A stretch of DNA of 64,000 bases from assembly GCA_963776345.1 (NCBI GenBank), contig CAVZMH010000022.1:384001-448000 (forward strand), given 5' to 3'. Origin of the DNA: an uncultured delta proteobacterium (GTDB lineage: Bacteria > Myxococcota > Myxococcia > Myxococcales > Myxococcaceae). Shown one piece after another: positions 2,215 to 50,206 of this stretch; position 1 is the stretch's first letter; the number at the start of each line of letters is the position of its first letter. The notes beneath the pieces were generated by a model. It was not told the DNA's origin. It worked only from the letters and a program-made list of their open reading frames with translations, and searched no databases. The translations under genes and the position numbers were made by a program.

Positions 2215-3002
2215 TCACCAGACCCGGCAGGCGCCGGCCCGCGCCATCGGCTTCCCCGCCGGGCAGCTGAACGCCTCGCGGAACTCGGGCTGGTTCGACA
2301 TCACGTGGTTCACCCGGTACTCGTGCAGCGAGTGGGGGTTGGTCCGGACGATCACCCGCGCGAACTCGGGGCGGATGGCCTGGCACCAGGAGAAGGCGTT
2401 CCCGGCGAAGAAGCGCTGGCGCGCCGTCAACTCCCGCCCTGGTCCACCATCAGGACGGTGGTCTGCGCGTCGGTGAAGTCGGGAGTCGACCCGAATCCGA
2501 AGAGCGCGGCGTCGGTGCCGTTGTTGCCCATCTCCGCGGCGCCGGGCAGCGCGAGGTGGAGCACGGCGATCTCCCGCGCCAGGTCGCGCTTGTCCTTCAG
2601 CCGGCTGATGCGGTCGAGGTCCGGCTTGATCGGGGAGAGCCCGGCCCGCTCGATGCCGGGCTCGTCCATGCAGGCGGCCCAGGCGTCGCCGATGAGGCGC
2701 TGGTTGGGGGAGCGGCCCGGGTCCGGCCGGGCAGCGTCGTCGAGCGTCTGGCGGAGGAGGTCCTTGCTCCAGAGGTTCAGCGGCGAGCTGGTGCCCCAGG
2801 CCACCTCCTCGGCGGGGATGGGATTGGCCCCCAGCCACCTCGAGCAGGTGAAGGCGTAGAAGTCGATGCAGGGGTCCTTGCTCCAGTCGAGGAGCGAGGC
2901 GTCGAACTGCGAGGGCTGCGGTGACTCGAGCGCGGCCGCCCGGGCGGCGGGAACGGCGGCGAGCGCGGTGAGGATCAAGACTCGGCACAGGCTGGGTCCC
3001 AC
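2215..3002 (-). pseudogene. M13 (neprilysin-like) metallopeptidase with large internal deletion
   Basis: Signal peptide + DPCIDFYAFTC...DQGG N-terminus joins out of frame at about 2433 to the M13 C-terminus (QRFF...NPHS..EYRVN..SNQPEFREAFSCPAGKPM..CRVW). No HExxH. Confidence 0.85.
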
Positions 3003-3160: not shown

Positions 3161-5701
3161 TCAGCCCGTCGCCGCCTCGCCGGTCGAGGGCACCGGCTCC
3201 TCGGCGGGGCGCTGTCGCCGACGCCGCCAGAGCTGCGCCGCAGGTAGGACCAGGAGCGCGGCGAGCAAGCACGCCGCCTCGCCGATCACCGCGGTGAGGC
3301 CCAGGCTCCTGACGCCGAAGTTGAGCGAGCGCGTCAGCGCCAGGTAGCCGAGCAGGGTGGTCAGGCTGCAGAGGACCACCGCCCCCCCGGTCCGCCGCAG
3401 CGTCTCCAGCGGATCTCTCAGCTCGAGGTCTCGCTGCACGATGTTCACCGCGTAGTCCACGCCGATGCCGAAGGTGACCGGCAGGGCGATGAAGTTGAGG
3501 AAGTTCAGCTTGACCTTCCAGAGCGCGAGGATGCCCACGGTCCAGAACACGCCGACCAGCAGCGAGAGGATGACCCGGGTCATCGAGCGCCATCGCCGGA
3601 AGCTCAGGGCGACGATGCACAGGGTGGCGATGATGGACACCACGAGCGCCCGGGGGATGTCCTTCAGGATCGCGCTCCACATGTCGGCGTAGATGACCGC
3701 ACGCCCCGAGCCGCGGATCTCGCTTCCGTCGGGGAGGATGGTGCTCCGGTACCCGTCCGCCCAGCGCAGGAGGTAGTGCGCGTCCGAGGTGACGTCGCCT
3801 TCGCCGTCGATGGGGCTGATGTAGAGGATCCGCCCGCGGGTCCCGTCCTTCTCGGTGAAGGGCCGGGCGATGGCGTCGGGCAGCTCGGCGATCCCGAAGG
3901 GCTTCAGGTCCTCCGGGGGCAGGTACGGCTCGACCTTCTCCCAGTCCGGGACCAGCCCCAGCCGGTGCGCCTTCAGGATGCGCCGCCGGAGCTGCATCAG
4001 GATCGGGATCTTGGCCTGCTGATCCCGGGGCACGAAGTCCTCGAGGGTGTGCACTGCCTTGAACGGCTTCGCATCGGCCGGCGCGGCATCCCGGCGGGCC
4101 TCGAGCGCGGCCTTGAGCGGCGCCACCTGGTCCAGCCGGTCGGTCATCACCGCCATCCCGTTCACACCGACGAAGCCGGTGATCCCCAGCGCGACGTGGA
4201 AGAGCCGGTGCACCTCGGAGACCGCCTGCCGGTCGCTCTGGATCTTGTTGGTGTCGTACTCCATCGGGTCGGAGCGGACGTAGAAGACCGTGAGCACGGC
4301 GCCGACGATGGCCAGCAGGCCGCCGACCAGGGTGATGGCCCGCGGCGCGCTGGCGACGATGGCGGCGAAGGGCCGTCCGAAGGGGACGCCCTCGCCCTGC
4401 ACCCGCAGCGCCCGCCGCCACCAGGAGACGCGCTCGAGCGGGACGATGCGCTCCATCAAGAGCAAGATCGGGGGGAGCGAGAGGAAGGCCGCCGCCCAGC
4501 AGAGCAGCATCCCGAGCCCCCCGATCCAGCCGAACTCGCGGAAGCCCTTGAACTCGGTGACCACCAGCGCGCCGTAGGCGGCCGAGGCGGTCGCGGCGGC
4601 GGTCAGGGTCGGCCGCCAGGTGTGGCGCATCGCCTCGACGATCGCCGCCTCGGCAGGTGTCCCCTTCCCCCGCTCCTCGATGTAGCGGGCCATGAGGAGG
4701 ATGGAGAAGTTGATGCCGTTGCCGGCGATGATGGTGAACAGGAAGCCGGTGGCGAGGTTGAGGCGACCGATGAGCAGCTCGGTCAGGGCGAAGGTCCAGG
4801 CGACCCCGATGCCGATCCCCAGGCCCATCGAGACGACGGTCCGGATTCGCAGGTAATAGACGAACACGATGCCGAGGATCAGCAGCGTCCCGGCGAGGCC
4901 CACCTCGGTGAGGTCGCGGTTGATCAGCCGGTACTCCGAGAGGCCGATGATCAGATCGCCACTGAGGTCGAACCGGGCCGCCGGATCGAAGGACCGGAGG
5001 TTCACCCGCCGGACGACCTCGGAGACGCGGGCCACCGCCTCCTCCGCCTGCTTGAAGTCGGCGCCCACCACGCCGCTGCGGATGAGGATGACCGCGGTCT
5101 TGCCGTCGGCGCTCTGGTAGTGCCCGTCGCCCGGGAACTTCCGCTCGTCCTCGGGCTTCACCCCCAGCCCGGCCTTCAGCGAGTCCGGAGCGATGGGTGG
5201 CGGCGGGGCCTCGTCCAGGTCGAGCTGCAGCCCGCTGCGCTTCCCGACCTCGTAGGCGTAGCGGGCCTCCACGTCGTCGCGGAGCTTCCTCAGGGTGGCG
5301 AGGTCCGTGTAGAGGCCGGTGCGAGGCCGGACGAAGGCCAGCGCGTCGTGGACCCCGTTCTCCACCTGCCCCACCCAGGGCGGCCCGATGGCCGCCAGGG
5401 CGGGGACCAGCGCGTCGGAGGCCCGCCGCAGCCCGGCCGGGTCCTGCCCCTCGAGCACCACGAAGATGGTGGAGAGGCTCGAGGTGCGGGCGGAGACCCG
5501 GCGGAGCTCGAGGACGCTCGGCCGCGACTCGGGCAGGAGGCTCTCGAAGCCGGTCTCGAGCCTCAGCCGGGTGGCGAGGACGATCGAGACCGCCGTCAGG
5601 ACGGCAATCGCCGAGAGGACCTGGACCGGGCGCCGGAGCTGCCAATCGATGAGGCGACCCAGGACCCGCTGGAGCGGGGACCTCGCGGGTGGCGAGCTCA
5701 C
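3161..5701 (-). CDS. MMPL/RND-family lipid transporter
   Basis: 846 aa, duplicated TM + periplasmic loop architecture, GIGVDYAVNI motif. Confidence 0.9.
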   Translation of the reverse strand: MSSPPARSPLQRVLGRLIDWQLRRPVQVLSAIAVLTAVSIVLATRLRLETGFESLLPESRPSVLELRRVSARTSSLSTIFVVLEGQDPAGLRRASDALVPALAAIGPPWVGQVENGVHDALAFVRPRTGLYTDLATLRKLRDDVEARYAYEVGKRSGLQLDLDEAPPPPIAPDSLKAGLGVKPEDERKFPGDGHYQSADGKTAVILIRSGVVGADFKQAEEAVARVSEVVRRVNLRSFDPAARFDLSGDLIIGLSEYRLINRDLTEVGLAGTLLILGIVFVYYLRIRTVVSMGLGIGIGVAWTFALTELLIGRLNLATGFLFTIIAGNGINFSILLMARYIEERGKGTPAEAAIVEAMRHTWRPTLTAAATASAAYGALVVTEFKGFREFGWIGGLGMLLCWAAAFLSLPPILLLMERIVPLERVSWWRRALRVQGEGVPFGRPFAAIVASAPRAITLVGGLLAIVGAVLTVFYVRSDPMEYDTNKIQSDRQAVSEVHRLFHVALGITGFVGVNGMAVMTDRLDQVAPLKAALEARRDAAPADAKPFKAVHTLEDFVPRDQQAKIPILMQLRRRILKAHRLGLVPDWEKVEPYLPPEDLKPFGIAELPDAIARPFTEKDGTRGRILYISPIDGEGDVTSDAHYLLRWADGYRSTILPDGSEIRGSGRAVIYADMWSAILKDIPRALVVSIIATLCIVALSFRRWRSMTRVILSLLVGVFWTVGILALWKVKLNFLNFIALPVTFGIGVDYAVNIVQRDLELRDPLETLRRTGGAVVLCSLTTLLGYLALTRSLNFGVRSLGLTAVIGEAACLLAALLVLPAAQLWRRRRQRPAEEPVPSTGEAATG

Positions 5702-7215: not shown

Positions 7216-7224
7216 GCAGCGCGC

Positions 7225-7881
7225 TCACCACTCGACCACGAAGTCCGCGTAGTCGGCCTCGGCCGGGGTCTGTGAGTTGTCCCCGTCGGTCATCAGCCCG
7301 ATGGCCACGAAGTCGGGCACGTCCTCCAGCCTTCCGCCGTAGTGCTTCACGAACTCCCTCCTCGGGTCGACCGCGTACGAGTTCCAGACGTCGAGCGGTC
7401 CGCCCACCTGCACCAGGATCGTGTCCCGGTCGAAGAACCACCCGCGCGCCGACTGGCAGGAGGTCCCCACGGTGCCGACCGTGCTCCAGACGTACTTGAT
7501 CACCATGAGCTTCAACCCGGCCTTGAAGGCCAGGAACACCGAGGCGGCGGCGTCGGAGGCGCCCGGCCCGCAGTCGTTCGCGTCCCGGGGGAGCGAGTGG
7601 ACCCGCCAGCGCCAGCTCACCGAGGTGACCGTGTGCCGGGCCTGCTCCGGGACCGTGGCCTTCAGCACCACATTGCCCAGCCCCGGCCGGTAGACGGCCC
7701 GGATCAGCGGCACCCCGTCCTCGGCGCCCACCGAGTAGTAGTTCACCGGACCGGAGTCCTCCTTGAACACGCTGAAGGCCGCCGGGGCGATGACTGTGCG
7801 GTGCCGGGCCTCCGGCGCGGGCGCGGTTCCGTCGCCGCTCGAGGCGAGGGCCAGGAGCAAGAGAGCCGTCGAGAGGGACAT
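7225..7881 (-). CDS. Secreted DUF3047-like protein
   Basis: Signal peptide from ATG 7881; SWRWRV..LP, DAAASVF, IKYVWS, IGLMTDGDNS..A.ADYAD. Confidence 0.7.
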   Translation of the reverse strand: MSLSTALLLLALASSGDGTAPAPEARHRTVIAPAAFSVFKEDSGPVNYYSVGAEDGVPLIRAVYRPGLGNVVLKATVPEQARHTVTSVSWRWRVHSLPRDANDCGPGASDAAASVFLAFKAGLKLMVIKYVWSTVGTVGTSCQSARGWFFDRDTILVQVGGPLDVWNSYAVDPRREFVKHYGGRLEDVPDFVAIGLMTDGDNSQTPAEADYADFVVEW

Positions 7882-7933
7882 GATCGTGGCGCGCACTTGA
7901 CGGCACTCCACGGGCGCGTGTCAAAAGCTTCGC

Positions 7934-9847
7934 GTGGACGTTTCCCCTCTCGAGAGCACCCAGCCGTCGTCGCCAGCCGGTGGGGTGGACCGCGCGACGC
8001 TGGCCCTGGCCGAGGCCATCATCCCGGGGACCAGCACCATCCCCGGCGCCGACGACACGACGGTGCGCGAGGTCGCCGCGCTGGTCGCCCGGCTGTCGCC
8101 GAGGCTGGCCACCGCCTGGACTGCCGCCCACCGTGCGCTCGACGCCGCCGCCCGCCTGCGCACCGGCCGCCCCTTCCACGCCCTCTCCGCGGCCCGCCAG
8201 GAGGCGCTGCTCACGCGGTGGGAGCGCGACCCGCTGCTCAAGATTCCGCTGTCCGTCCTGTCGAGCGTCTACAAGGTCGTCCACTTCGACTCCCCGCACG
8301 TGCAGCGGGCGATGGGGGCGAGGCCCAGGCCGCCCCTTCCGGTCACCGAGCCGCACTGGGCCCGGCAGGTTCACTCCGCCAGCTCGTGGACCGGCGGCGA
8401 CGTCGAGTGCGACGTGGTGGTCATGGGGACCGGCGCGGGCGGGGCAGTGGTGGGGTACGAGCTCGCCGCGCGCGGCCATGCGGTGGTCTTCGTCGAGGAG
8501 GGGCAGCTCTACCACCGGCACAGCTTCGACGGCAGCACGGTGCGCGCCTACGAGCGCTTCTACCGGCCGGCCTTCGCGGTGGGCAACGCGACCTTCCCGG
8601 TCTTCGTCGGGCGGATGGTCGGTGGCTCGACGGGGGTGAACGGCGGCACCGCCTTCCGGACTCCCTCCTGGGTCCTGGACCGCTGGTGCGAGGAGATGGG
8701 GACCGACGCCTTCGAGCCGTCCCGGATGGCTCGCTACTTCGACCAGGTGGAGGCGCACCTCGAGGTGGGCCCGTCCTCTCGCCGCCACGTGGGGCCCATC
8801 GCCGACGTCATGCAGCGTGGGTGCGATGCGCTCGGCTGGAAGCACGGCCAGCTCCTCAGGAACGCGCCGGGGTGCGAGGCGTCCGGCTTCTGCCACGTCG
8901 GTTGCCGGAGCGACGCCCGGCGCAGCACCAACCTCTCCTACGTCCCGCCGGCGCTGGAGCGGGGCGCCCTGCTCTTCACCGGGCTGAAGGCCGACCGGGT
9001 GGTGGTGGAGAGCGGGCGCGCGACGGGCATCGAGGGCCGCGCGCCGAACGGGGCGCGGATCCGCGTGCGCGCCAGGGCGGTCATCCTGGCGGGTGGGACG
9101 ATCCCCACGCCGCTGTTCCTCATGGCGCAGAACCTCGCCAACGCGAGCGGCCAGGTCGGACGGAACCTCACCCTCCACCCGAGCTGCGTGGCGCTGGGCC
9201 TCTTCGACGAGGAGATCCGCGGCTTCGACCACATCCCCCAGGGGTACGGGTCTGAGGAGTTCCTCCGCGAGGGCCTGCTGCTGGTCGCGGCGCAGGCGAC
9301 CCACAACGCAATGCCGAGCATGTTCGCCTCGGTCGGCCGCCGGCTCATGGAGCCGCTGGCCCAGCTCCGTCACGCGGCCGGCGTCGGGCCGCTCGCCGCG
9401 GACGCCACGCGCAACGGCCGGGTGTGGAGGGAGTTCCGGGGGCTCCCGGTCATTCGCTACACGGTCACCCCGGCGGACGTCGCCCGTCTCAAGCGCGGCC
9501 TCGAGCTGTCGATGGAGATGCTGGTCGCGGCGGGAGCTCGCCGCCTGTACCCCGGCGTCCTCGGGGTCGGGAGCCTGGAGCCGCGCCGCGGGCTGGACGC
9601 CTTCCGGAAGCGGGAGGTGTCGGCATCCGACATGGCGCTGGTCAGCTACCATCCGCTGGGGACCTGCCAGATGGGCACCGACCGGCGCACCAGCGTGGTG
9701 GGGATCGATCACCAGTGCCACGACGTCCCCGGGCTGTTCATCGTCGACGGCAGCACGGTGCGCGGACCCCTCGGGGTCAACCCCCAGCTCACCATCATGG
9801 CGATCGCCGCCCGCGCGGCCGACCAGATCTCACCGCAGCTCGGGTGA
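7934..9847 (+). CDS. GMC oxidoreductase (long-chain alcohol oxidase-like) with N-terminal helical extension
   Basis: VVVMGTGAGG FAD motif, VGGSTGVNGG, C..SGFCHVGC, SYHPLGTCQMG, GVNPQLTI. Confidence 0.9.
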   Translation: MDVSPLESTQPSSPAGGVDRATLALAEAIIPGTSTIPGADDTTVREVAALVARLSPRLATAWTAAHRALDAAARLRTGRPFHALSAARQEALLTRWERDPLLKIPLSVLSSVYKVVHFDSPHVQRAMGARPRPPLPVTEPHWARQVHSASSWTGGDVECDVVVMGTGAGGAVVGYELAARGHAVVFVEEGQLYHRHSFDGSTVRAYERFYRPAFAVGNATFPVFVGRMVGGSTGVNGGTAFRTPSWVLDRWCEEMGTDAFEPSRMARYFDQVEAHLEVGPSSRRHVGPIADVMQRGCDALGWKHGQLLRNAPGCEASGFCHVGCRSDARRSTNLSYVPPALERGALLFTGLKADRVVVESGRATGIEGRAPNGARIRVRARAVILAGGTIPTPLFLMAQNLANASGQVGRNLTLHPSCVALGLFDEEIRGFDHIPQGYGSEEFLREGLLLVAAQATHNAMPSMFASVGRRLMEPLAQLRHAAGVGPLAADATRNGRVWREFRGLPVIRYTVTPADVARLKRGLELSMEMLVAAGARRLYPGVLGVGSLEPRRGLDAFRKREVSASDMALVSYHPLGTCQMGTDRRTSVVGIDHQCHDVPGLFIVDGSTVRGPLGVNPQLTIMAIAARAADQISPQLG

Positions 9848-11455
9848 GCGCCGCTTCCGGAAGAACGCCCGCAGCGTCCGCATCCGGCGCCGCAGGAGGC
9901 CGGGCAGCTTCCAGGCGCCCCCCAGGCGGTTGCCCTGGAGATCCGCCAGGACGTCCCCCAGCTCGACCAGCGTCTGGTCGTACGGCATCCAGAAGAGCTC
10001 GGGCGCCCGCCGGCGATCGACCACCAGCGTCCGCGGCCGGACGAAGGTGGCCAGGGCGAAGGCGCTGTTGGCGACGCCGAACCCCGTGGCCCGGGTCCCG
10101 GACCAGGGGAGGCTCGGGATCGCGCCGGTGAACGCGTGGTTGTTGATGCTCACCACCCCGTAGTCCAGCCGCTCCGCCAGGCGCTGGCCGCGGTCGAGGT
10201 CGCTGGTCCAGATGGACGCGCCGAGCCCGTAGCGGAGCTGGTTGGCCGCCCGGATGGCCTCCGCCGGCCCGTCCACCCGGATGATGGCCAGCACCGGACC
10301 GAAGGTCTCGTCGCGCACCACCGACATCGTGTCGTTGCAGTGGTCGAGGAGCGTGGGCGCGAACCAGAGCCCCTCGCCGAGCGGGGCGCCGCCCGAGACC
10401 ACCGTCGCCCCGCGCGCCCTGGCGTCCTCGACGTGCTGCTTCACCAGGCGGAACTGGCGCTCGTTGGCCAGCGGCGCGACGTCGGTCGAGGCTCCATGGC
10501 CGGGTCCGACCCGCAGCCGGGTCCACACCTCGCGCATCCGGGCGACGAACGCCTCGGCCACCGGGCGCTCCACGTAGACGATCTCGATCGCCCCGCAGGC
10601 CTGGCCGGCGTTGCTCAGCGCCCAGTGGGTGATCCCGGCGACCGTGCGCTCCAGGTCGCAGTCGGCAAAGACGAGGGCCGGGTCCTTCCCGCCCATCTCC
10701 GCGCTGCAGGGGATGCCCAGCTCGGCGCAACGGACCGAGACCAGGCGTCCGGTCGCCGTCGAGCCGGTGAAGACACAGGCGTCCGGCCTCGCGTCGAGCA
10801 GGGCCGCGCCGACCTCGCCGCCACCGACCGCGACCTGCACCACGCCCGCCGGCAGGCGTCCGGCGAGCAGCTCGGCGAACCAGCTGCTCGAGCGTGGCGA
10901 GTACTCGCTCGGCTTGAGGATGATGCTGTTGCCGGCCATCAGCGCCGGGAAGACCGAGCGGTACAGGCCGGCGGCCGGGTAGTTCCAGGGGGCGATGATG
11001 GCGACGACCCCCCGGGGGACGGCCTCCACGTAGGCCCGTTTCCCCGGGAAACTCAAGGGGTTGAGCCGGACCCTTCGCCGCTCGAGCACGGGGCCGAGCA
11101 CACGGGCCCAGCCCTTCACCGCGTCCAGCGGGCCGAGCGCCTCGTTGAAGAGCGCCTCCGCCTCGACCTTGCCGACCTCCTCGGCGACGAGCGCCATGAG
11201 CTCCTGACGGCGCTGGAGCATCTCGCGCGCGGCCGCCAGCAGGCACGCCACCCGCTCGGACAGGGGGGTATGCCCCCAGGCCTCCTGGGCATCCCGGGCG
11301 CGGGCCATCCGGGCCACGAGCGGCTCCCCGGGCGTGGCCTGGACCGCGGCCACCGCGCGCTGCTCGCGGCCGGGGATGTGCCCGAGCGCCCCCCCGGGCG
11401 CGTGCGTCCCTTCACGGGCCACGGGCTCGGTCAGGGGCGGATCGGACGGCGGCAT
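9830..11455 (-). CDS. Aldehyde dehydrogenase
   Basis: IAPWNYP, LKPSE, FTGSTATG, EMGGKDP, NAGQAC, ETFGPV. Start uncertain (11455 or 11497). Confidence 0.92.
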   Translation of the reverse strand: MPPSDPPLTEPVAREGTHAPGGALGHIPGREQRAVAAVQATPGEPLVARMARARDAQEAWGHTPLSERVACLLAAAREMLQRRQELMALVAEEVGKVEAEALFNEALGPLDAVKGWARVLGPVLERRRVRLNPLSFPGKRAYVEAVPRGVVAIIAPWNYPAAGLYRSVFPALMAGNSIILKPSEYSPRSSSWFAELLAGRLPAGVVQVAVGGGEVGAALLDARPDACVFTGSTATGRLVSVRCAELGIPCSAEMGGKDPALVFADCDLERTVAGITHWALSNAGQACGAIEIVYVERPVAEAFVARMREVWTRLRVGPGHGASTDVAPLANERQFRLVKQHVEDARARGATVVSGGAPLGEGLWFAPTLLDHCNDTMSVVRDETFGPVLAIIRVDGPAEAIRAANQLRYGLGASIWTSDLDRGQRLAERLDYGVVSINNHAFTGAIPSLPWSGTRATGFGVANSAFALATFVRPRTLVVDRRRAPELFWMPYDQTLVELGDVLADLQGNRLGGAWKLPGLLRRRMRTLRAFFRKRRSPELR

Positions 11456-11588
11456 CGAAAGGGAGGGTGGGGCAGGGTAGGGCGACTCTCTTAACACGCT
11501 CCGCGTTGGCCCTAGGGAGTACGCGGGCCAGGCCAGCTTGGCCGTTGCCAGAGGGGTCGTCGGATGTTACGCAGCCCCGCGTCATTTC

Positions 11589-13169
11589 ATGAAAGTTCGT
11601 CGCGGCGGAGCGGTCATCGGCCCGCTGGCCTGGACGGCGGCAAGGGCACGGGTCGGGGCCTGGAACCGCGTCGCCAGCGGTCGTGACCGGCTACGAGAGG
11701 TCCAGATCGGTGCACTGAGGCAGAACTGTCGGGCGGCTGCCCGGACGGAGTTCGGCCGTGCGCACCGGCTCGCCGAGGTCTCCACCCACGCCGAGTTCCA
11801 GGAGCGCGTGCCGCTGCGAACCTATGCCGACTTCGAGCCCTACCTCGAGCGCATGCGCCACGGCGCGCGGGACGTGCTCTGGCCGGGGTTGATCCGGTAC
11901 TTCGGTCAGTCCTCCGGCAGCTCCCAGACGCTCTCCCAGCACAAGTTCCTGCCCATCTCCGATCAGCAGATCCGGTGGCAGCAGAAGGCCGCGTTCGACG
12001 TGGTGGTCCAGTACGTCACGCACGTCGGACACGCCCGGTTCCTGGGGGGCTTCACCCTCGGGCTCTTCCCGCCCTCCACGCTGAAGCCGGACGGCGCGGT
12101 GAACACCACCAACAACCCGGGGTTGATGCAGCGGAACGTGCCCTGGCCGGTCCGGGACGGGGTCCTGCCCAGGGCAGACCTCCGTGACATCCAGGACTAC
12201 GATGAAAAGCTGGAGAGGATGGCGGCGGCCTACCTGGACCACGACGTCCGGGCCCTCTCGGGGACCACCTGCTGGTTCTCGGTGTTCTTCGACAAGCTGC
12301 TCCGGGCCGCCCGGGCGCGTGGGCGCCCGGTGAGCACCGTCTCCGAGCTGTGGCCGAACCTCGAGGTGCTCTTCGGAGGCGGAATCAACGCCGAGCCCTA
12401 CCGGCCGGTGATCGAGAAGCGCGTCGGTCGACCGGTGGTCATCATGGACAACTACAACGCCACCGAGGGCGGCATCTTCGCGGTCACCGATCGCATCGGC
12501 GAGCCGGGGATGCTGGTGGTCCCCGACCGGGGCGTGTTCTTCGAGTTCGTCGCCGCCTCCGAGCACGGCAAGCCCGGCGCGCGCCGGCTGGCCCTCTGGG
12601 AGGTGGAGCCGGGGGTCGACTACTCCATCGCGGTGAGCACCTCCTCGGGCCTCTTCGGCTACCTGATCGGGGACCTGGTGCAGTTCCAGAGCGTCTTCCC
12701 GCACCGGATGGAGTTCGTGGGCCGGACCTCGGGCGTGCTCTCGCTGACCCAGGAGCTGACCTCCTTCGTGGAGATCGAGCGCGCCATGGAGGCCGCCGTC
12801 CGTGCGGCTGGGTGCTCGGTGGTGGAGTTCTCGGCGGGGGCCGAGGTGGGAGTCGGCGGCACCGGCAAGGGCCGCTACCAGCTCTTCGTCGAGTTCGACC
12901 AGCCGCCGGCGGACCCGCACCGCTTCACCACCGCCTTCGACGAGAGCCTCTGCGCACAGAACCGCGTCTACCGGGAGCACCGGGCCGCGGACGTGGCCAT
13001 CCTCCCCCCGGCGCTCTTCGCCCTGCCGCCCGGGGGGGCCCGCCGCTTCATGGAGGACATTGGCCGGAGAAGCCCGCAGCAGAAGTTTCCGAGGGTGGTC
13101 GAGAATTCTAAGCGGGACATCCTCGCAAAATATGCCACATTGATCGAGTTACCCTGGGAGCGTGCATGA
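11589..13169 (+). CDS. GH3-family acyl-acid amido synthetase
   Basis: SSGSS...KFLP, YNATEGG, YLIGD motifs; C-terminal QQKFPRV. Confidence 0.88.
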   Translation: MKVRRGGAVIGPLAWTAARARVGAWNRVASGRDRLREVQIGALRQNCRAAARTEFGRAHRLAEVSTHAEFQERVPLRTYADFEPYLERMRHGARDVLWPGLIRYFGQSSGSSQTLSQHKFLPISDQQIRWQQKAAFDVVVQYVTHVGHARFLGGFTLGLFPPSTLKPDGAVNTTNNPGLMQRNVPWPVRDGVLPRADLRDIQDYDEKLERMAAAYLDHDVRALSGTTCWFSVFFDKLLRAARARGRPVSTVSELWPNLEVLFGGGINAEPYRPVIEKRVGRPVVIMDNYNATEGGIFAVTDRIGEPGMLVVPDRGVFFEFVAASEHGKPGARRLALWEVEPGVDYSIAVSTSSGLFGYLIGDLVQFQSVFPHRMEFVGRTSGVLSLTQELTSFVEIERAMEAAVRAAGCSVVEFSAGAEVGVGGTGKGRYQLFVEFDQPPADPHRFTTAFDESLCAQNRVYREHRAADVAILPPALFALPPGGARRFMEDIGRRSPQQKFPRVVENSKRDILAKYATLIELPWERA

Positions 13170-14366
13170 GCCGGTTGGGAGTCTGCTTCGTCGGCGCGGG
13201 TGGAGCCGTGGCCAGCACGGTGATCGCGGGCGTCGCCCTGATGAAGCGAGGGCTCGCTCCACGCATCGGGATGGTGACCGAAACCGGGTTGCCCCAGACT
13301 CTCGGTTGCGCGCCGCTCGATAGCCTGGTGTTCGGCGGCTGGGACCTCCGGGACACGAACATCTTCGAGGCCGCGCTCCGCGAGCGCATCGTCCCCGCGG
13401 AGCTGCTGCGGAAGGTCGAGCCGGAGCTGCGGGCGATCAAGCCGTGGCCCGGCGTGGTCTCCCCGAAGTTCCTGGGGACCGCCGATGCGAGCCACGTGGT
13501 CCCCGCCGCCAGCCACCGGGAGGAGCTGGAGATCCTCACCCGCAACGTGAAGGACTTCAAGGCGGCCAACAAGCTCGACCGGCTGATCATCGTGAACCTC
13601 GGCTCGACCGAGCGGCACGCCGAGGTCTCCGACGTGCACCGCACCGTCGCGGCCTTCGAGGCCGGCCTGCAGCGCAGCGACGAACGCATCAGCCCGGCGA
13701 TGAAGTACCTGTACCTCGCCTGCAAGCTGGGAGCGGCCCACGTCAACTTCACCCCCAGCCTGACCAAGGTCCCGGCGCTGGAGGCCCTGGCGGAGAGCTC
13801 GGGCATCCCCATCACCGGTGAGGACGGGAAGACGGGCCAGACGCTCCTCAAGACCGCGCTCGCTCCGGCGTTCGCCGTCCGGCAGCTCAAGGTCGAGGGG
13901 TGGTTCTCCACCAACATCCTGGGCAACAACGACGGCCGGGTGCTCGACGATCCGGAGAGCAACAAGACCAAGGTCGCGAGCAAGCTCTCGGTGCTGGACG
14001 AGATCCTCGGCTACGAGGTGTCCGACCACCAGGTGCACATCAACTACTACCGCCCGCGCGGGGACGAGAAGGAGGCCTGGGACAACATCGACGTGCTGGG
14101 CTTCCTCGGCGAGCGGATGCAGATCAAGAGTCAACTTCCTCTGCAAGGACTCGATCCTCGCCGCCCCGCTGGTGGTCGATCTGGTACGCCTGATGGACGT
14201 CGCCCAGCGCTGCGGGGAGCGCGGCATCCAGCGTCAGTTCTCGCTCTTCTTCAAGGCGCCCTACCACCGGGAGGGCGAGCGCGCGGTGAACGACCTGTTC
14301 AAGCAGAACACCCTCCTCCACGAGTGGGTGGAGAAGGTCGTCCGCCGCGTTCGCGCTGCGGTCTAG
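13166..14366 (+). CDS. ino1: Myo-inositol-1-phosphate synthase, +1 frameshift at about 14129
   Basis: VFGGWD, VNLGSTE, GEDGKTGQT, WFSTNILGNNDG, KEAWDNID. The C-terminus VNFLCKDSILAAPLVVDL lies in the next frame. Confidence 0.9.
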
Positions 14367-14367
14367 C

Positions 14368-15678
14368 GTGCGGTCGCTGGCGATCCACGGCGGCAGCCCG
14401 GCCGTCCCGGCGGGCGCCCACGTCCGCTGGCCGGTGCTCGGGGACGAGGAGCGAACGGCGCTGCTGGGCGTGCTGGAGCGCGGCGTCCTCTCCGGGCAGC
14501 TCGCTCCCGAGGTCCGGGGGCTGGAACGGGAGTTCGCCGCCTTCGTCGGATCGCGCCACTGCCTCGCCACCAACAGCGGCACCTCGGCGCTCCACCTCGC
14601 CCTGATCGGGGCGGGGGTGAAGCCCGGCGACGAGGTCATCGTCCCGGCGTTCACCTTCGTGGCGACGGCGATGGCCGTGCTGCACCAGGGTGCGGTTCCG
14701 GTGTTCGTGGACGTCGAGCCGAATACTTTTGGTCTGGACCCCGCGCGGCTGGAGGCGGCCATCACCCCGCGCACCCGGGCGGTGGTCCCGGTCCACCTCC
14801 ACGGGGTGCCCTGCGAGCTGCAGGCGGTGGTGGACATCGCCGCGCGCCACGGGCTCGTCGTGGTCGAGGACTCCGCCCAGGCGATCGGCGCCCGGTACCG
14901 GGGACGGGCCGCCGGAACGATCGGCCAGTCCGGGTGCTTCAGCCTCCAGTCCTCGAAGAGCGTGACCTGTGGCGAGGGCGGCCTGCTGGTCACCGACGAC
15001 GAGGCCGTCTACCGGCGGGCCCACAGCGCCCGCATGTTCGGCGAGGACAGCCGCCCCGAGGACGAGGCCAGCTACGACCTCACCCACGCCCTCGACGGGA
15101 ACCGCGCCTACGACTCGGCGGCGGTGGGATGGAACTACCGCACCGGCGAGCTGTCGGCGGCGGTGGCCCGGGCGCAGCTCCGCCGCCTGCCGCAGTGGAA
15201 CGCCGGCGCGCTGGAGAACGCCCGGCTCCTGACCCGGCGACTGCGCGAGCTGCCCGGCGTGACCCCGCCCATGGTTCCGGAGGACCGCGAGCCGGCCTTC
15301 CACAAGTACCGCGTGCAGCTCGACGCGACGAAGCTCGGCCTGGACGCGCCGCCGGTGGCGGTGCGTGACGCCATGCTCCGCGCGCTCCGCGCCGAGGGCT
15401 GCGAGGTGGTGCTGTGGCAGAGCCGGCCCGTCCCCGGGCAGACGCTGTTCCAGCGCATGGAGGCGGAGGCCGCCGCTCGCCCGGCGCAGGGCCGCGTCAG
15501 CTACGACCTCGCGCAGTACCCCCAGACCCGGGCGATCCTCGACCGTTCGCTCTGCCTCTTCTCGCAGACCTACCCCATCGCGCCGCAGCCGCGGGCGCTG
15601 GTGGAGGTGTACGCCGAGGCCTTCGCCCAGGTGTGGCTGCGGCTGCCCGAGGTGCTCTCGACGTCGAGGGCCGGATGA
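14368..15678 (+). CDS. DegT/DnrJ/EryC1/StrS PLP aminotransferase
   Basis: NSGTSALH, VPAFTFVAT, EDSAQA, FSLQSSKSVTCGEGG, GWNYR. Confidence 0.93.
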   Translation: MRSLAIHGGSPAVPAGAHVRWPVLGDEERTALLGVLERGVLSGQLAPEVRGLEREFAAFVGSRHCLATNSGTSALHLALIGAGVKPGDEVIVPAFTFVATAMAVLHQGAVPVFVDVEPNTFGLDPARLEAAITPRTRAVVPVHLHGVPCELQAVVDIAARHGLVVVEDSAQAIGARYRGRAAGTIGQSGCFSLQSSKSVTCGEGGLLVTDDEAVYRRAHSARMFGEDSRPEDEASYDLTHALDGNRAYDSAAVGWNYRTGELSAAVARAQLRRLPQWNAGALENARLLTRRLRELPGVTPPMVPEDREPAFHKYRVQLDATKLGLDAPPVAVRDAMLRALRAEGCEVVLWQSRPVPGQTLFQRMEAEAAARPAQGRVSYDLAQYPQTRAILDRSLCLFSQTYPIAPQPRALVEVYAEAFAQVWLRLPEVLSTSRAG

Positions 15679-16667
15679 ACCTCCGCGGACCGGGGTTCTT
15701 CGGACGGCCGCTCGTCCGGCTCGCCTGCGCCGTCGCCGGCACCGCCGTGCTCGCCCTCTCGGTGTGGGCCGCCGGCGCCCAGGAGGTGCTCCAGCGCCTC
15801 GGGGCGAGCGCCCACGCCCTGCCGATGCTCGCCGCGCTCGAGGCCGCGATGGTGGCCTGCAGCACGCTCGCCCTGCGAGCCCTCTACGGCGCGAGCGCGG
15901 CGCAGGTCTCCGCCCGTCAGTGGTTGCGGGTGGGCGCGGCCGGCTATGCCGTCGGCCTCGTGCTGCCGATGGGCCGGGGCTCGGGCGAGGCCGCCCGTGC
16001 GCTTCTCCTCAGCCGGAGCGCCGGCGGAGCACGGGCGGCGGTCGCCGCAGTGCAGATGCAGGGCGTGGTGCTCCTGTCCACCGCGGCGTTCGTGGTGCCG
16101 CTGCTCGTCGCCACGCTGGCGCTGCTCGGGCCGGGCGCGACCGCGGGGCTCGTCCTGGCCAACGGCGTGGTGGCGGGCGTGCTCGGGGCGAGCATCCTCC
16201 TCCTCCGCCAGCGCGCCAGCCCGGGGCGGTTCCTCGGGGGGCTGAGCAAGCGCCTCCACCGCTTCGGCGCCGCCTTCGACGACGCCGCCGGCGCGTCCAG
16301 GGCCGACCTCCTCCGGTCGCTGGCCTGGGAGACCGCCGGCCGGGTGGCGCAAGCGGTCCAGTGCGGCGTCGCCCTGGCCGCCATCGGCCACCCCTCCGGC
16401 CTCGTCCGGGTGCTGGTCACCCGCGGAATGCTGATGGTGGGAAGCGCGCTGGGGGACCTCATCCCCGGACAGCTCGGCGCCACCGAGGCCACGCTGGTGG
16501 TGGGCGCCGAGGCCCTGGCGCTGACGGCGGCGAGCGCCGCCTCGCTCGCCCTGCTCATCCACGGGGCGCAGATCCTCCTCGGCCTCCTGTGCACCGCGGT
16601 GGCCTCCGCTCTCCCCGGTCTCGCCCCGACCGCGGCCGCCGCGGATTCACGCGTCGAATGGCGCTGA
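15675..16667 (+). CDS. Lysylphosphatidylglycerol-synthase TM (flippase-like) membrane protein
   Basis: Multiple TM segments, LPMGRGSGEAAR, IPGQLGATEA; ATGA overlap with the aminotransferase stop. Confidence 0.7.
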   Translation: MNLRGPGFFGRPLVRLACAVAGTAVLALSVWAAGAQEVLQRLGASAHALPMLAALEAAMVACSTLALRALYGASAAQVSARQWLRVGAAGYAVGLVLPMGRGSGEAARALLLSRSAGGARAAVAAVQMQGVVLLSTAAFVVPLLVATLALLGPGATAGLVLANGVVAGVLGASILLLRQRASPGRFLGGLSKRLHRFGAAFDDAAGASRADLLRSLAWETAGRVAQAVQCGVALAAIGHPSGLVRVLVTRGMLMVGSALGDLIPGQLGATEATLVVGAEALALTAASAASLALLIHGAQILLGLLCTAVASALPGLAPTAAAADSRVEWR

Positions 16668-17575
16668 TCCCCCGCATCGTCGTAGGCACCTCGCGCCTGG
16701 GCAGCATCCTCCCCGATGGGCTCGCCCCGGGGTCCAGCCGGGAGAAGGAGCTCCGGTACCTGGACGCGCTGGTGGAGGCGGGGTGCACGGCCTTCGACCT
16801 CGCGGCCTCGTACCAGCTCGGCGGGACCGAACGTCTCCTCGGACGCTGGATGGCCTCGCGCCGCCTCCGGGAGCGGCTCTTCCTGGTCGGAAAGGGCGGC
16901 CACCCCTACCCGGGCATCCGTCCCAACCGGCTCGGCGCGACGGCGCTCTCCCGGGACCTCGAGGCCAGCCTGCGCCGGCTCCGGGTCGAGCGGCTGGACC
17001 TCTACCTCCTCCATCGAGACTCCCCCGGTGCGCCGCTCGAGCCCATCGTCGAGACGCTCGGCGCCGCCCTCCGCTCGGGGAAGATCCAGGCCTGGGGCGT
17101 GTCGAACTGGAGCATCCCCCGCATCCAGGCCCTCGAGGCGGCGGCGCGGCAGGGGGGGCTTCCGCCGATGGCCGCCACGAGCCCCCACTACTCGCTCGTC
17201 GACTGGGTGCGCCCGCCCTGGACCGGCTCGGTGAGCATCGCCGGGCCTGCGAACCGCGAGGCGCGGGCGTTCCACCAGCGCACGCAGCTTCACGTGCTGG
17301 CGTGGGCTCCGCTCGGCTCTGGGTTCCTGACCTCCGAGCGGGTCCGGGGAGGCAGTTACGGCAGTCCCGGGAACGTCGCCCGGAGGGAACGGGCGCGGGC
17401 GCTGGCCAGGGAGCGTGGCTGCACCCCGGCGCAGGTTGCCCTGGCCTACCTCTTCAGCCAGCCCTTCCCCGTGTCCGCGGTGGTCGCCGCCAGCACCGTG
17501 GAGAAGATGCGCCGGAACCTCGAGGCGGGCACGATGCGGCTGTCCGCGGACGAGGTCCAGGCGCTCGAGGGGTAG
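16658..17575 (+). CDS. Aldo/keto reductase
   Basis: FDLAASY, SLRRLRVERLDLYLLH, GKIQAWGVSNW, WAPLGSG, TPAQVALAY. Confidence 0.9.
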   Translation: MALIPRIVVGTSRLGSILPDGLAPGSSREKELRYLDALVEAGCTAFDLAASYQLGGTERLLGRWMASRRLRERLFLVGKGGHPYPGIRPNRLGATALSRDLEASLRRLRVERLDLYLLHRDSPGAPLEPIVETLGAALRSGKIQAWGVSNWSIPRIQALEAAARQGGLPPMAATSPHYSLVDWVRPPWTGSVSIAGPANREARAFHQRTQLHVLAWAPLGSGFLTSERVRGGSYGSPGNVARRERARALARERGCTPAQVALAYLFSQPFPVSAVVAASTVEKMRRNLEAGTMRLSADEVQALEG

Positions 17576-17584
17576 ACAGGATCG

Positions 17585-19246
17585 ATGGAGGTCATCGAGA
17601 GAGCCGAGGGGTGGGATGCGATCGTCGTGGGCTCGGGCGCCACGGGCGGGGTCGCCGCGCTGAAGCTCACCCGGGCGGGCCTGCGCGTCCTGGTGCTCGA
17701 GGCCGGCGCGCCGGTCGTGCGCCGGCGGGACCACGGCTCGTTCCTGACCAATGGCTGCAAGCAGCTCTACCGGCACCTGGTCTCGCACCGCCAGGAGGTC
17801 CAGAAGAGCCACCCCACCTACTGGGCGACCAACCCCGACTTCTTCGTCGACGACGTGGACAACCCTTACACCACGCCGCCCGACAAGCCGTTCCGGTGGA
17901 TACGCTCGCGGCGGGTGGGGGGGCGCTCGCTGGTCTGGGACGCGGTGACGCCGCGCTTCTCCGACTTCGACTTCAAGGCGGCGAGCCGGGATGGCTTCGG
18001 GCCGGACTGGCCCATCACCCACGCCGACCTCGCTCCCCACTACTCGGAGCTGGAGCGCCTGCTCGGGGTCCACGGCTCGCGGGAGGGGCTGCCGCAGCTC
18101 CCCGACGGCGAGTTCCGCGAAGCGCGGCCGATGACGCCCGCGGAGCGCCTCTTCAAGGAGCGCGTGGAGCGGGTGTTCCCCGAGCGCCGGGTCATCATCT
18201 CCCGGGGCCTGTTCGCCCGGAGGCCTCCCGAGCGGGGCGAGACGCTCTCGCGCATCTCCAGCCCCGCGACGACGCTCCGCGCCGCCGGGGAGACCGGCCG
18301 GTTGACCCTGCGGAGCGGGGCGGTCGTCGCCCACGTCCTCGTCGACCGTGACGGCACGCGCGCCACGGGGGTGGAGTTCGTGGACACGGCGACCGGTCGG
18401 ACCGAGGAGGCGCGGGCCAGGCTGGTGTTCCTCTGCGCGTCCACGCTGGAGAGCGTGCGCATCCTCATGAACTCCAGAAGTGCCGCGCACCCCGAGGGGA
18501 TCGGCGCGTCCTCCGGAGTGCTCGGGCGCTACGTGATGGACCACAGCGCCGGCAACGTCTACTTCTACCTGCCGGACGTCCCGGACACCGGCGGGCCCTA
18601 CGAGCTGCTGGGCAGCGACAGCATCATGATCCCCCGCTACCAGAACCTCGGGTCGACGCGGGAGCCGTACCTGCGCGGCTTCGGCCTGTGGGGAGGCATC
18701 CAGCGGCTGCCGGTGCCCAACTTCCTCCGGCGGCACAGGGACGTGGCCTTCGGATTCCTCTGCGCGCGCTCGGAGACGTTGCCCCACCGCGACAACCGCA
18801 TGGAGATCGACCCCACGCTGAAGGACGCCTGGGGCATCCCCGCGGCGCACATCGTCTGCGAGTGGAAGGACGAGGACCTGGTCCTGGCCCGCGCGGCCCG
18901 GGCCGCGGCGAGGGAGATCGTCGAGGCCGGCGGTGGGCGGTGCGCCGAGGTGACCGAGCTCTTCCACACCCCGTTCGTCACCGGCCACATCCAGAAGATG
19001 CAGAAGGAGTGGACGCTCTCCACGCCGGGGATGTTCGTCCACGAGGTCGGGGGCGCGCGCATGGGCACCGACGCGAGGAGCTCGGTGCTCGACCCGACCT
19101 GCCGCTCCTGGGACGTCGGGAACCTCTACCTCACCGACGGCGCCTGCTGGCCCACGTCCGGGTGGCAGAACCCCACGCTCACCGAGATGGCCGTCACCGC
19201 GCGCGCCTGTGACCACGCGGTCGCCACGCTCCGGGGTGATGGCTGA
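17585..19246 (+). CDS. GMC oxidoreductase (sugar/glycoside dehydrogenase-like)
   Basis: AIVVGSGATGG, VGGRSLVW, DWPITHADLAPHY, HEVGGARMG, QNPTLT. Confidence 0.9.
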   Translation: MEVIERAEGWDAIVVGSGATGGVAALKLTRAGLRVLVLEAGAPVVRRRDHGSFLTNGCKQLYRHLVSHRQEVQKSHPTYWATNPDFFVDDVDNPYTTPPDKPFRWIRSRRVGGRSLVWDAVTPRFSDFDFKAASRDGFGPDWPITHADLAPHYSELERLLGVHGSREGLPQLPDGEFREARPMTPAERLFKERVERVFPERRVIISRGLFARRPPERGETLSRISSPATTLRAAGETGRLTLRSGAVVAHVLVDRDGTRATGVEFVDTATGRTEEARARLVFLCASTLESVRILMNSRSAAHPEGIGASSGVLGRYVMDHSAGNVYFYLPDVPDTGGPYELLGSDSIMIPRYQNLGSTREPYLRGFGLWGGIQRLPVPNFLRRHRDVAFGFLCARSETLPHRDNRMEIDPTLKDAWGIPAAHIVCEWKDEDLVLARAARAAAREIVEAGGGRCAEVTELFHTPFVTGHIQKMQKEWTLSTPGMFVHEVGGARMGTDARSSVLDPTCRSWDVGNLYLTDGACWPTSGWQNPTLTEMAVTARACDHAVATLRGDG

Positions 19247-20764
19247 CTAGCGCGGCGCCGCCGAGCGGGCCGGCGCATCGGCGAACGCCCAGAACCGGGC
19301 CCGGAACCAGGCGAGGAACACCAGGACGCTCAGGAGCGTGGTCGCGCCCCAGGGAATGAGGAGCGGCACTGACCGGGGCAGCGCGACCGAGAACTCGGGC
19401 AGGACGGCGAAGCCGACGGCCCACACCCACCAGCGCCGCCACGCCGGCGGGCAGCTCAGGCCGAAGAAGGGCAGCGCGACCAGCAGGTACCAGGACTGGA
19501 ACCTCGGGCTGCCGAGCGTCACCACCGCCACGACGAATGCCCCGGTGGCCAGCGCCAGCCGCTCCTCGTCGAGCCGGCGGAGCAGCCCGAGCCCGAGCGG
19601 GAGGATGGCGGCCAGGGCGAGGAGCGTCGCGAGGACCTGGGCGGCCCGGGTCGCCCGGGCGCGGGCCTGCTGCTGGCGCGCGTCGAAGGTCTCGACCAGC
19701 CGGTCCAGGTTGAGCCTGCCGCTGGCGAACGCACCGGCCACGGTGCCGGCCACGTCGACCAGCGTGCCGCCTGGCACCATGGTGCTCGTGGCGAGGCCGC
19801 GCAGCTGTCCGCGCACCGTGCCGGGGCCGTGCCAGAAGGGGGCATAGGCGAGGGCGGCGGCTGCGCCGAGGCACAGCGCGAGGAGCGCCCCCCTCCGGAC
19901 CCGCTGCGCCCAGCCGCTCGTCCCCGAGAGCCAGAACCAGGGGAAGGCGAGGCCGAAGTTGAGCTTGCCGAGCACGGCCAGCGACCAGGCCATGCCCGCG
20001 CCGACCCGGGGTGCCCGCCGGCGCAGCAGCAGGCCTGCGGTGATGAGGAGGGCGCCCAACAGGTCGGGGTGCAGCTGTCCCGGCCCCTCGACCAGGAACA
20101 GCGGGTTCAGCCAGATCATCGCGTGGAACGCCGGTCGATCGGGGACGGCACGCAGCGAGATCTCGAAGAGCGCCACCAGGGGCACGAGCCAGGCCAGCTT
20201 GAGCCAGGCCTCGGCGCGGTAGGGGTTGGCGCCGCCGAGCACGCTGGGCCAGGCCGCGAGGAGGGTGATCGGGCCATACGGGCTCGGGCTCTCTCGCCAG
20301 CGGATGCCGATCCACGAGAACCACACGCTCTCGGGGTACGCCATGGCCGAGCTGTAGACGTCCTTGCCGCGGCTGCTGAGATCCGCCTGGGCGAGGAGGC
20401 TGAAGAGGTCGTTGCTCAGGAGCGGCAGCATCCCCACCACGGCGAGGAGACCCAGGTAGAACAGCCGGCGCGGGCGCCCGGGCGGGTCGGCGAGCATCCT
20501 GCCCCACCCGGTGACGGCCAGCGCCCACCCGAGGCACATGGCGAGGAGCAGCAGCGTCCCGGCCGCCTGCGACGGGTAGTGCTCGTCCACCTTTGGCGAG
20601 CCCGTCACGAGGCAGCGGGCCCAGGAGCAGAGCGTGAGGATGGACAGGCCCGCCAGCCATCGAATCGCCGCGGCCCGGGACGAGAGGCGGGGCCCGAGGT
20701 CTTCCGGGCCGGACTCGGGCACGAGGGGCGCGCGCGGCGGGAGTTGCTCCACGGGAGTGCTCAT
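19247..20764 (-). CDS. GT-C glycosyltransferase (GT87/MptB-like)
   Basis: PLLSNDLFS, SPYGP, WLNPL..EG.GQLHPD, FQSWYL; many TM segments. Confidence 0.75.
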   Translation of the reverse strand: MSTPVEQLPPRAPLVPESGPEDLGPRLSSRAAAIRWLAGLSILTLCSWARCLVTGSPKVDEHYPSQAAGTLLLLAMCLGWALAVTGWGRMLADPPGRPRRLFYLGLLAVVGMLPLLSNDLFSLLAQADLSSRGKDVYSSAMAYPESVWFSWIGIRWRESPSPYGPITLLAAWPSVLGGANPYRAEAWLKLAWLVPLVALFEISLRAVPDRPAFHAMIWLNPLFLVEGPGQLHPDLLGALLITAGLLLRRRAPRVGAGMAWSLAVLGKLNFGLAFPWFWLSGTSGWAQRVRRGALLALCLGAAAALAYAPFWHGPGTVRGQLRGLATSTMVPGGTLVDVAGTVAGAFASGRLNLDRLVETFDARQQQARARATRAAQVLATLLALAAILPLGLGLLRRLDEERLALATGAFVVAVVTLGSPRFQSWYLLVALPFFGLSCPPAWRRWWVWAVGFAVLPEFSVALPRSVPLLIPWGATTLLSVLVFLAWFRARFWAFADAPARSAAPR

Positions 20765-39256: not shown

Positions 39257-39275
39257 CGGCGGGGGAGCCGGGCGC

Positions 39276-40238: not shown

Positions 40239-40296
40239 GTCCTCTCCTGTGCGTTCGCTTCGGTGATCACCTGCCACTCCGTCCCGGCGCTCCGGC

Positions 40297-41322
<1,026 letters not shown>

Positions 41323-47737: not shown

Positions 47738-47798
47738 GCTGGTGTCTCCTCGAATCGTGGTGGCGCGCTGGCGCGCGTGGTGTGTCCTGTCCCCGCCC

Positions 47799-50115: not shown

Positions 50116-50142
50116 CGACTGCCTCGTGATTCGCGTGCTCCG

Positions 50143-50181: not shown

Positions 50182-50206
50182 CAGGTCCTGACGAATCGTG
50201 CTTCGG

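Follow-up and report, generated by a model that had tools for sequence, protein, structure and literature searches.

Gene content of the cluster

We analysed a 64,000-nucleotide stretch of DNA, hereafter the window, from an uncultured member of the Myxococcaceae (GenBank assembly GCA_963776345.1, contig CAVZMH010000022.1, positions 384,001 to 448,000 of the forward strand), which carries a GH3 acyl-acid amido synthetase gene clustered with genes for a myo-inositol-1-phosphate synthase (INO1), a DegT-family aminotransferase and two putative lipid transporters. The host genome is 5.1 Mb in size and 98% complete, and the GC content of the window is about 72%. As listed in Table 1, 12 coding genes lie between positions 3161 and 20764, with a GC content at third codon positions of 0.90-0.96 and intergenic gaps of -18 to +91 bases, which bears out the tight packing claimed in a preliminary description of this DNA. 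The gene families named there held for eleven genes, while the GT-C label of the last gene is the weakest, as its product resembles only faintly the mannosyltransferase model TIGR03459 (28 bits, E 9e-7, cut-off 439). Neither a phosphatase nor a CDP-alcohol transferase had been seen in the cluster, which is correct.

Table 1. Genes of the cluster, in window positions; locus counts refer to the 80 related GH3 loci described in the text (aa, amino acids; TM, transmembrane segments; ORF, open reading frame; PLP, pyridoxal phosphate)
Feature	Position	Strand	Evidence and assignment
MMPL/RND transporter, 846 aa, 12 predicted TM	3161..5701	-	PF03176, E 1e-33; likely exporter
PMT_2/GT39-like GT-C glycosyltransferase, 505 aa	5698..7215	-	PF13231, E 1.5e-31; genus-limited accessory
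DUF3047 protein, probably exported	7225..7881 (ORF reaches 7911)	-	PF11249, E 3e-15; accessory, 11/80 loci
GMC1 flavoprotein with fused gluconate-2-dehydrogenase-subunit-3-like N-domain	7934..9847	+	Profile match; likely alcohol oxidation in the acid branch, alternatively inositol oxidation
Aldehyde dehydrogenase (ALDH), start uncertain	9830..11497	-	PF00171, E 9e-115; likely makes the carboxylic acid
GH3 acyl-acid amido synthetase, 526 aa	11589..13169	+	PF03321/PF23571/PF23572 above cut-off
Myo-inositol-1-phosphate synthase (INO1)	13166..14366	+	PF07994 and PF01658; extra base at 14129/14130
DegT-family PLP aminotransferase (Asp168, Lys197)	14368..15678	+	Best solved relative 8GYH/8GYJ; likely inosose aminotransferase
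LPG_synthase_TM protein	15675..16667	+	PF03706; MprF flippase-domain fold; likely flippase
Aldo-keto reductase (AKR)	16658..17575	+	PF00248; genus-limited accessory, 10/80 loci, 9 of these congeners
GMC2, akin to fructose/glucose dehydrogenase large subunits	17585..19246	+	Genus-limited; candidate cyclitol or sugar oxidant
Polytopic membrane protein, weakly MptA/GT87-like	19247..20764	-	No Pfam match; variable position

The Asp/Lys set of INO1, which we take to be catalytic, was invariant in 55 of 55 homologues, and the intact INO1 of a congener matched structure 7NWR with 323 bits. The catalytic Glu267 and Cys301 of ALDH were invariant among the aligned homologues, and His573 and Asn616 of GMC1 were present in 26 of 27; the fold search with GMC1 was uninformative on its substrate, the best structural matches having 18-19% identity. 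For the MMPL protein the best NCBIfam models, HpnN (231 bits, cut-off 752) and BstA (151 bits, cut-off 1400), both fell far short. The GT39-like protein and all 10 of its orthologues have NGEAYY at a place where the family motif, as we assume, usually has Asp ahead of the Glu, and its activity may differ from that of the family. The GH3 profile matches plant GH3 structures, and the nucleotide-binding motifs SSGSS..K, YNATE and Y.IGD, for which the consulted part of PMC12493201 served as reference, are conserved, with each position tested retained by 70-72 of the 72 homologues and position 111 being Ser or Thr. The best NCBIfam model of GH3 is that of OlsH (NF052613), although with 276 bits its cut-off of 620 is not reached. 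GH3, INO1 and DegT are each single-copy in the host genome. No promoter was found by scanning, and the three terminator-like sites are as many as chance predicts.

The reading frame of ino1 is broken in the assembly by a single extra A at 14129/14130. This base is missing from the near-identical contigs of all four other sequencing runs, and one contig of 27.6 kb covers the full 18 kb with 236 substitutions and no further indel within genes. INO1 is also intact in congeners (399-401 aa), with the exception of one long-read-like locus (L040) in which several genes are broken. Since the contigs of the other runs are without it, the extra A is probably an assembly error; a strain-specific lesion is possible, and we consider it unlikely that ino1 is a pseudogene.

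Conservation of the locus in related genomes

We examined the surroundings of GH3 in 80 loci, the best 80 of 132 GH3 relatives in a species-genome scan, and counted gene families by profile search. Contig ends cut many of these loci, and 45 have long flanks on both sides. INO1 and DegT were each found in 63 of the 80 loci, the flippase-like protein in 53, MMPL in 46 (outside the genus mostly at 26-35% identity), GMC and ALDH in 40 each and an inositol monophosphatase in 33; the long-flank loci gave INO1 38, DegT 41, flippase 36, MMPL 33, GMC 29, ALDH 26 and phosphatase 21. Rarer were DUF3047 (11), GT39 (10), AKR (10), MlaD (10), P450 (6), START (5), a PLP decarboxylase (4) and IolG (3), and a different GT87 lies a few kb farther out in seven loci. 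One locus, L115 from an unpublished genome (G329), forms a single row in these counts, in the IolG/GMC1 tally and in the flippase alignment, and the conclusions are independent of it. As a control, INO1 itself was followed through 30 returned loci from 36 genomes with a match: DegT adjoins all 16 INO1 matches at 64% identity or more, whereas GH3 or DegT lies within 1.5 kb of none of the 14 more distant homologues.

The GH3-INO1-DegT-flippase-MMPL arrangement was seen in Myxococcaceae, Polyangia, Kofleriaceae, Sandaracinaceae and a few records titled Bdellovibrionota or Chlamydiae. Three loci from records titled Chlamydiae, Oligoflexia and Bdellovibrionota (L072, L073, L106) group on the GH3 tree, which may reflect transfer or mis-binning. 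Second GH3 paralogues, with P450, a short GMC, ALDH and an FAD oxidase and with no cyclitol genes, occur at L096, L098 and L099.

GH3 is present in 11 of 12 congener genomes and, farther afield, in 5 of 48. All 11 GH3-bearing congeners keep the left arm (MMPL, GT39, DUF3047, GMC1 and ALDH), and nine of them AKR with GMC2, a contig end explaining the remaining two. GMC2 was found in nine loci, in congeners only and at 86-91% identity; every one of the GT39 loci belongs to a close relative; and the gene at 19247-20764 occurs in two of the nine congener loci that extend that far. The whole 12-gene unit can thus be rejected as the conserved entity: it is a genus-specific elaboration of a smaller conserved core. 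The expectation of conserved co-localisation held for the GH3-INO1-DegT-flippase-MMPL core and failed for the full set, and glycosylation, which the preliminary description had made part of the pathway, is not a general feature of it.

Gene profiles were also drawn up across 301 genomes of the phylum, each at least 90% complete. These genomes are kin and not independent, only 4-5 orthologue candidates were scored per genome, and the cut-offs for DegT, GMC1 and ALDH were picked after the lists had been inspected, so that the Fisher values for co-occurrence are overstated. The GH3 clade occurs in 26 of the 301 and the DegT clade in 17, all of them GH3-positive. Heavily sampled genera of large genomes are without the GH3 clade (0 of 31, 0 of 20 and 0 of 13), and neither the 240 listed GH3 homologues nor the 80 loci include a named cultured isolate, which together may be the reason that the system has escaped description. 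The closest relatives by GH3 search, among the homologues listed, are metagenome-assembled Myxococcaceae bacteria.

The amine branch

In five loci (L064, L067, L069, L086 and L199) a GH3 of the same clade stands without INO1 alongside, and an inosose-type aminotransferase is found instead. These aminotransferases form a clade separate from the window DegT, and the two that were tested match solved 2-deoxy-scyllo-inosose aminotransferases (2C7T/5W70/5W71, which we take to be BtrR/RbmB) with 381 and 372 bits. IolG scored above the TIGR04380 cut-off in all five genomes, adjoining the locus or elsewhere, and a sugar-phosphate cyclase closest to 4P53, presumably ValA, was found in L069, L199 and L200. 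On the GH3 trees (FastTree, 87 rows) the IolG-type GH3s take two positions, and their monophyly was rejected by the approximately unbiased test (p 9e-53; 23 of the 87 rows, LG+G4) for a grouping defined after the FastTree tree had been inspected. This implies that the INO1/DegT and IolG modules were swapped at least two times, the tree being silent on the direction. Some INO1-type loci carry an additional inosose-type aminotransferase beside an IolE-like gene. Since every replacement of INO1/DegT is another cyclitol-amine route, the amine substrate of GH3 is most likely an aminocyclitol.

The window DegT itself is closest among solved structures to 8GYH/8GYJ (297 bits, versus 205 for perosamine synthase and 159-181 for 2C7T/5W70/5W71). 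These structures are of Fic25 from ficellomycin biosynthesis, which, according to the consulted part of PMC11726168, aminates a carrier-bound open-chain dihydroxy-ketone. This kinship makes a substrate that is not a nucleoside diphosphate (NDP) sugar plausible for DegT, without pointing to inosose.

We also considered INO1 as a supplier of phosphatidylinositol and rejected it, as no phosphatidylinositol synthase was found in the host genome, whose three CDP-alcohol transferases have PgsA, ClsA and PssA as their best matches. The sole INO1 is thus left without an obvious other sink. The inositol monophosphatase that recurs within related loci is represented in the host by an unlinked SuhB-like gene on another contig (G000:C20; 229 bits against the PRK10757 cut-off of 332).

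Oxidation of the ring

The preliminary description had presumed that inositol is oxidised to inosose, and to this step no enzyme could be assigned. No inositol dehydrogenase of the IolG/PF01408 type exceeded the cut-off in the host genome, and IolG was absent from all 24 INO1-type genomes searched. GMC1 was found in 20 of these 24 and in one of five IolG-type genomes, a pattern that fits GMC1 as the inositol oxidant. On the other hand, GMC1 also occurs in four of seven genomes whose GH3 locus lacks INO1 and DegT, often paired with ALDH, and three genomes of 1.8 Mb keep INO1-DegT without GMC1. GMC2 resembles sugar dehydrogenases, yet it is genus-limited. The INO1 reaction passes through a keto intermediate. 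Candidates for the formation of inosose are therefore GMC1, the genus-limited GMC2/AKR pair, or a hand-over of the INO1 keto intermediate.

The acid branch

GMC1 and ALDH follow GH3 closely. GMC1 orthologues at E<=1e-200 were found in 17 of the 301 genomes, all GH3-positive; two matches in genomes without GH3 were weaker. The top 20 matches of ALDH were likewise all in GH3-positive genomes, three GH3-positive ones being among the next 14, and at this strict cut-off (20 of 26 GH3-positive genomes) ALDH tracks GH3 more closely than INO1 does. Where GMC1 lies away from GH3, it is within about 6 kb of an ALDH orthologue in 6 of 18 cases, and several loci without GMC1 have a shorter, different GMC and an ALDH near GH3. 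As they accompany GH3 even in the absence of INO1 and DegT, GMC1 and ALDH look more like acid suppliers than inositol oxidants, and are probably an alcohol-to-acid pair that feeds GH3. This suggests an acid other than the plain fatty acids of the cellular pool.

The acid might instead be a sterol or hopanoid acid, in which case GMC1 and ALDH would oxidise a triterpenoid alcohol, GH3 would join it to the aminocyclitol and the HpnN/BstA-like MMPL would export the product. An oxidosqualene cyclase above cut-off is encoded elsewhere in the host genome (G000:C17:47500-55400, L133), next to squalene synthase-like, epoxidase-like, glycosyltransferase-like and MMPL genes, and occurs in 12 of 12 congeners; the best models are HpnN and BstA for the MMPL and HpnL for the flippase; the L112 and L118 genomes have a GMC1 orthologue directly beside a sterol cluster; START, P450 and MlaD/Mce genes stand beside 5, 6 and 10 of the 80 loci, respectively; and sterol conjugates that are unidentified exist in a myxobacterium (PMC10202945, consulted in part). 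However, those conjugates were released by acid and not by base, and in the same part their authors suggest ether bonds; the HpnN, BstA and HpnL scores are all far under the cut-offs; oxidosqualene cyclase was found in 13 of 26 GH3-positive genomes versus 88 of 301 overall; and 18 of 55 GH3-positive genomes yielded neither kind of cyclase, and three of the 18, among the 14 of the 55 for which completeness is given, are 96% complete with the full enzyme set. An obligate sterol link can be dismissed on these numbers, and we consider a triterpenoid acid unlikely. At L203 and L204 the GMC1 orthologue and a sterol cluster (HMG-CoA reductase-SdmB-like fusion, GGR and epoxidase-OSC fusion) are arranged head-to-head.

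Transport

The predicted structure of the LPG_synthase_TM protein (mean pLDDT confidence score 92.6) aligned with MprF (6LVF) over 284 residues with Z 18.4 and a root-mean-square deviation of 4.4, the next unrelated structure having Z 7.2; Foldseek also placed MprF first, but at E 0.06. With most of the amine modules, GH3 keeps the flippase-like protein and MMPL as neighbours, an association that speaks for a lipid product. We take the LPG_synthase_TM protein as the likely flippase and MMPL as the likely exporter, the cargo being suggested by this context as the fold shows none.

A second MMPL of the host, 46% identical to that of the window, lies at G000:C15:336000-343000 (L134) with NeuB, a KdsC-like phosphatase (so labelled from a sequence motif), a short-chain dehydrogenase/reductase and a second LPG_synthase_TM gene. 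This is perhaps a parallel head-group, flippase and MMPL module, for a nonulosonate lipid.

Proposed pathway and alternatives

Taken together, we lean towards the reading that the cluster makes an N-acyl aminocyclitol lipid with a long-chain acid, which is flipped and exported to the envelope; if a triterpenoid acid is also allowed, we hold the N-acyl aminocyclitol lipid to be rather likely. INO1, as its family and catalytic residues suggest, would cyclise glucose-6-phosphate to inositol phosphate, from which an inositol monophosphatase (in the host presumably the unlinked SuhB-like protein) would strip the phosphate. The ring would then be oxidised to inosose by one of the candidates above, and DegT, as the module swap suggests, would transaminate inosose to inosamine. 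GMC1 and ALDH, judged by their co-inheritance with GH3, would convert an alcohol via the aldehyde into a carboxylic acid (most likely with a long chain), which GH3, given its nucleotide-binding motifs, is predicted to adenylate and join to the amine as an amide. The MprF-fold protein would then likely flip the product and MMPL likely move it outward. As a genus-only addition, the GT-C enzymes might conceivably attach sugars outside the membrane.

Thus, of the N-acylated inosamine lipid that had been proposed to be made, flipped, glycosylated and exported, the aminocyclitol amide is favoured by the module swap in two GH3 lineages, flipping by the MprF flippase-domain fold and export by the MMPL family membership and its recurrence in the loci, and glycosylation falls away as a general step. 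A fuller version, in which a fixed GH3-flippase-MMPL chassis with interchangeable amine modules makes N-acyl aminocyclitols as a hitherto unknown class of phosphorus-free envelope lipids in uncultured myxobacteria, the commonest form passing keto-inositol phosphate from INO1 straight to the aminotransferase without a dehydrogenase and a dedicated GMC/ALDH pair supplying an unusual oxidised lipid or triterpenoid acid, is offered as a speculation with a modest chance of being right.

Several observations weigh against our reading. The window DegT falls outside the inosose-aminotransferase clade, in a separate clade of its own, and its best solved relative uses a carrier-bound open-chain ketone. 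IolG is missing from the INO1-type genomes, as described above. INO1 is missing from 13 of the 65 loci in which GH3 has 3 kb or more of downstream sequence, and no amine gene is visible at several; the loci of family f14 consist of GH3, flippase and MMPL, either with a PLP decarboxylase, an alternative amine source that adjoins GH3 in 4 of the 80 loci, or with no amine gene. The GH3s of described substrate, in the part of the literature consulted, use amino acids. Finally, in the three 1.8-Mb genomes (L060, L068 and L192), which have GH3-INO1-DegT, no GMC1 or ALDH orthologue was found, and the loci examined are without flippase and MMPL. A P-loop kinase-like gene follows GH3-INO1-DegT at L060 and L068.

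Some of these observations would also suit a GH3 that acts like OlsH on an amino acid or a simple amine, with the INO1/DegT aminocyclitol attached or used separately; OlsH is the best NCBIfam model of GH3, and the f14 loci combine GH3, flippase and MMPL with no cyclitol gene. But no other ligase or transferase is conserved across the loci, the cyclitol-amine genes remain adjacent to GH3 through two replacements, and no OlsI-like alpha/beta hydrolase is among the families that recur in at least three loci, so that we regard this alternative as quite unlikely. It is improbable that the product is a secreted small-molecule aminocyclitol amide, such as a hygromycin A-like antibiotic or a signal, rather than an envelope lipid. 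The route of INO1, phosphatase, dehydrogenase and aminotransferase is the one proposed for hygromycin A (PMC10949010, in the part consulted), plant GH3 enzymes conjugate small acids, and the small-genome loci lack flippase and MMPL; yet a lipid flippase fold is found in 53 and MMPL in 46 of the 80 loci, the cassette is genus-wide (11 of 12 congeners), and the loci have no conserved regulator, resistance gene or tailoring set. That DegT is an ordinary NDP-keto-sugar aminotransferase feeding a GT-C-built glycan, its clustering with GH3 being incidental, is very improbable: its close homologues are automatically named perosamine synthase or dTDP-aminosugar transaminase and two GT-C-like genes lie in the window, but none of seven NDP-keto-sugar aminotransferase models (ArnB, PseC, WecE, LegC, DesI and RfbH among them) reached its cut-off (best 213 versus 631 bits), the core includes neither a nucleotidyltransferase nor a dehydratase, the GT-C genes are confined to the genus, and every genome among the 301 that carries the DegT clade also has GH3.

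Relation to known systems

The streptidine route with StsC is a related aminocyclitol pathway leading from myo-inositol-phosphate synthase to inosamine. The hygromycin A branch Hyg18/Hyg25/Hyg17/Hyg8 (PMC10949010, in the part consulted) shares with the predicted pathway the synthase, phosphatase, oxidation and transamination to inosamine, and the IolG-type variant loci match its gene set in full; the window differs in having no Gfo/Idh/MocA dehydrogenase and adds an amide-forming candidate in GH3, a lipid flippase and MMPL. OlsH is a bacterial GH3 that joins fatty acids to an amine in the ornithine-lipid pathway of Singulisphaera acidiphila (PMC12493201, consulted part). It shares with the window GH3 the three nucleotide-binding motifs, ATP-dependent acid-amine amide formation (predicted here) and a membrane-lipid context. 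The window GH3 differs by its low score against the OlsH model, by having no OlsI or OlsG neighbour, by its linkage to a cyclitol synthase, an aminotransferase, a flippase and MMPL, and by its predicted amine, an aminocyclitol and not ornithine; no OlsI-type alpha/beta hydrolase was seen in the window or among the recurring neighbour families, to which this search was confined. Fic25, like the window DegT as judged by kinship, aminates a polyhydroxy ketone other than an NDP-sugar, but in the consulted source its substrate sits on an amino-group-carrier protein, and no such pathway genes recur in the loci. The flippase-like protein shares its fold with the MprF flippase domain (6LVF, 9J8Q) but stands alone, without an aminoacyl-tRNA transferase domain, and the window MMPL shares its family with the HpnN/BstA-type RND lipid transporters but scores far under their cut-offs. 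Judged by its genes, the cluster resembles an amide-lipid synthase of the OlsH type coupled to an aminocyclitol route like that of hygromycin A, and it belongs to neither. In agreement with the preliminary description, which did not recognise the combination, no GH3-aminocyclitol pathway or N-acyl inosamine lipid was matched in the literature searched, a scope that left aside MIBiG, most subscription journals and article supplements.

Elsewhere in the window, an N-terminal piece of a peptidase M13, just 191 aa long and probably a truncated gene, lies ahead of the cluster (2215-3002), branched-chain amino-acid biosynthesis genes lie at 39000-50200, and positions 50427-57059 encode a secreted apiosidase-like protein along with one of 1363 aa that has 14 He_PIG Ig-like repeats.

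Implications

The cassette is conserved across dozens of uncultured species related to its host, an uncultured soil myxobacterium, and since its enzyme core is small and soluble, it is testable via expression from synthetic genes. If the proposed pathway is true, its product would be a new head-group class among bacterial membrane lipids and a concrete target for environmental lipidomics, and the pathway would give the first indication that a GH3 enzyme can accept a cyclitol amine in place of an amino acid. It would also give stand-alone MprF-type flippases and MMPL proteins, orphans so far, a likely cargo, and would mean that the aminocyclitol chemistry of actinomycete antibiotics has been turned to envelope lipids in a widespread uncultured branch of the Myxococcota.

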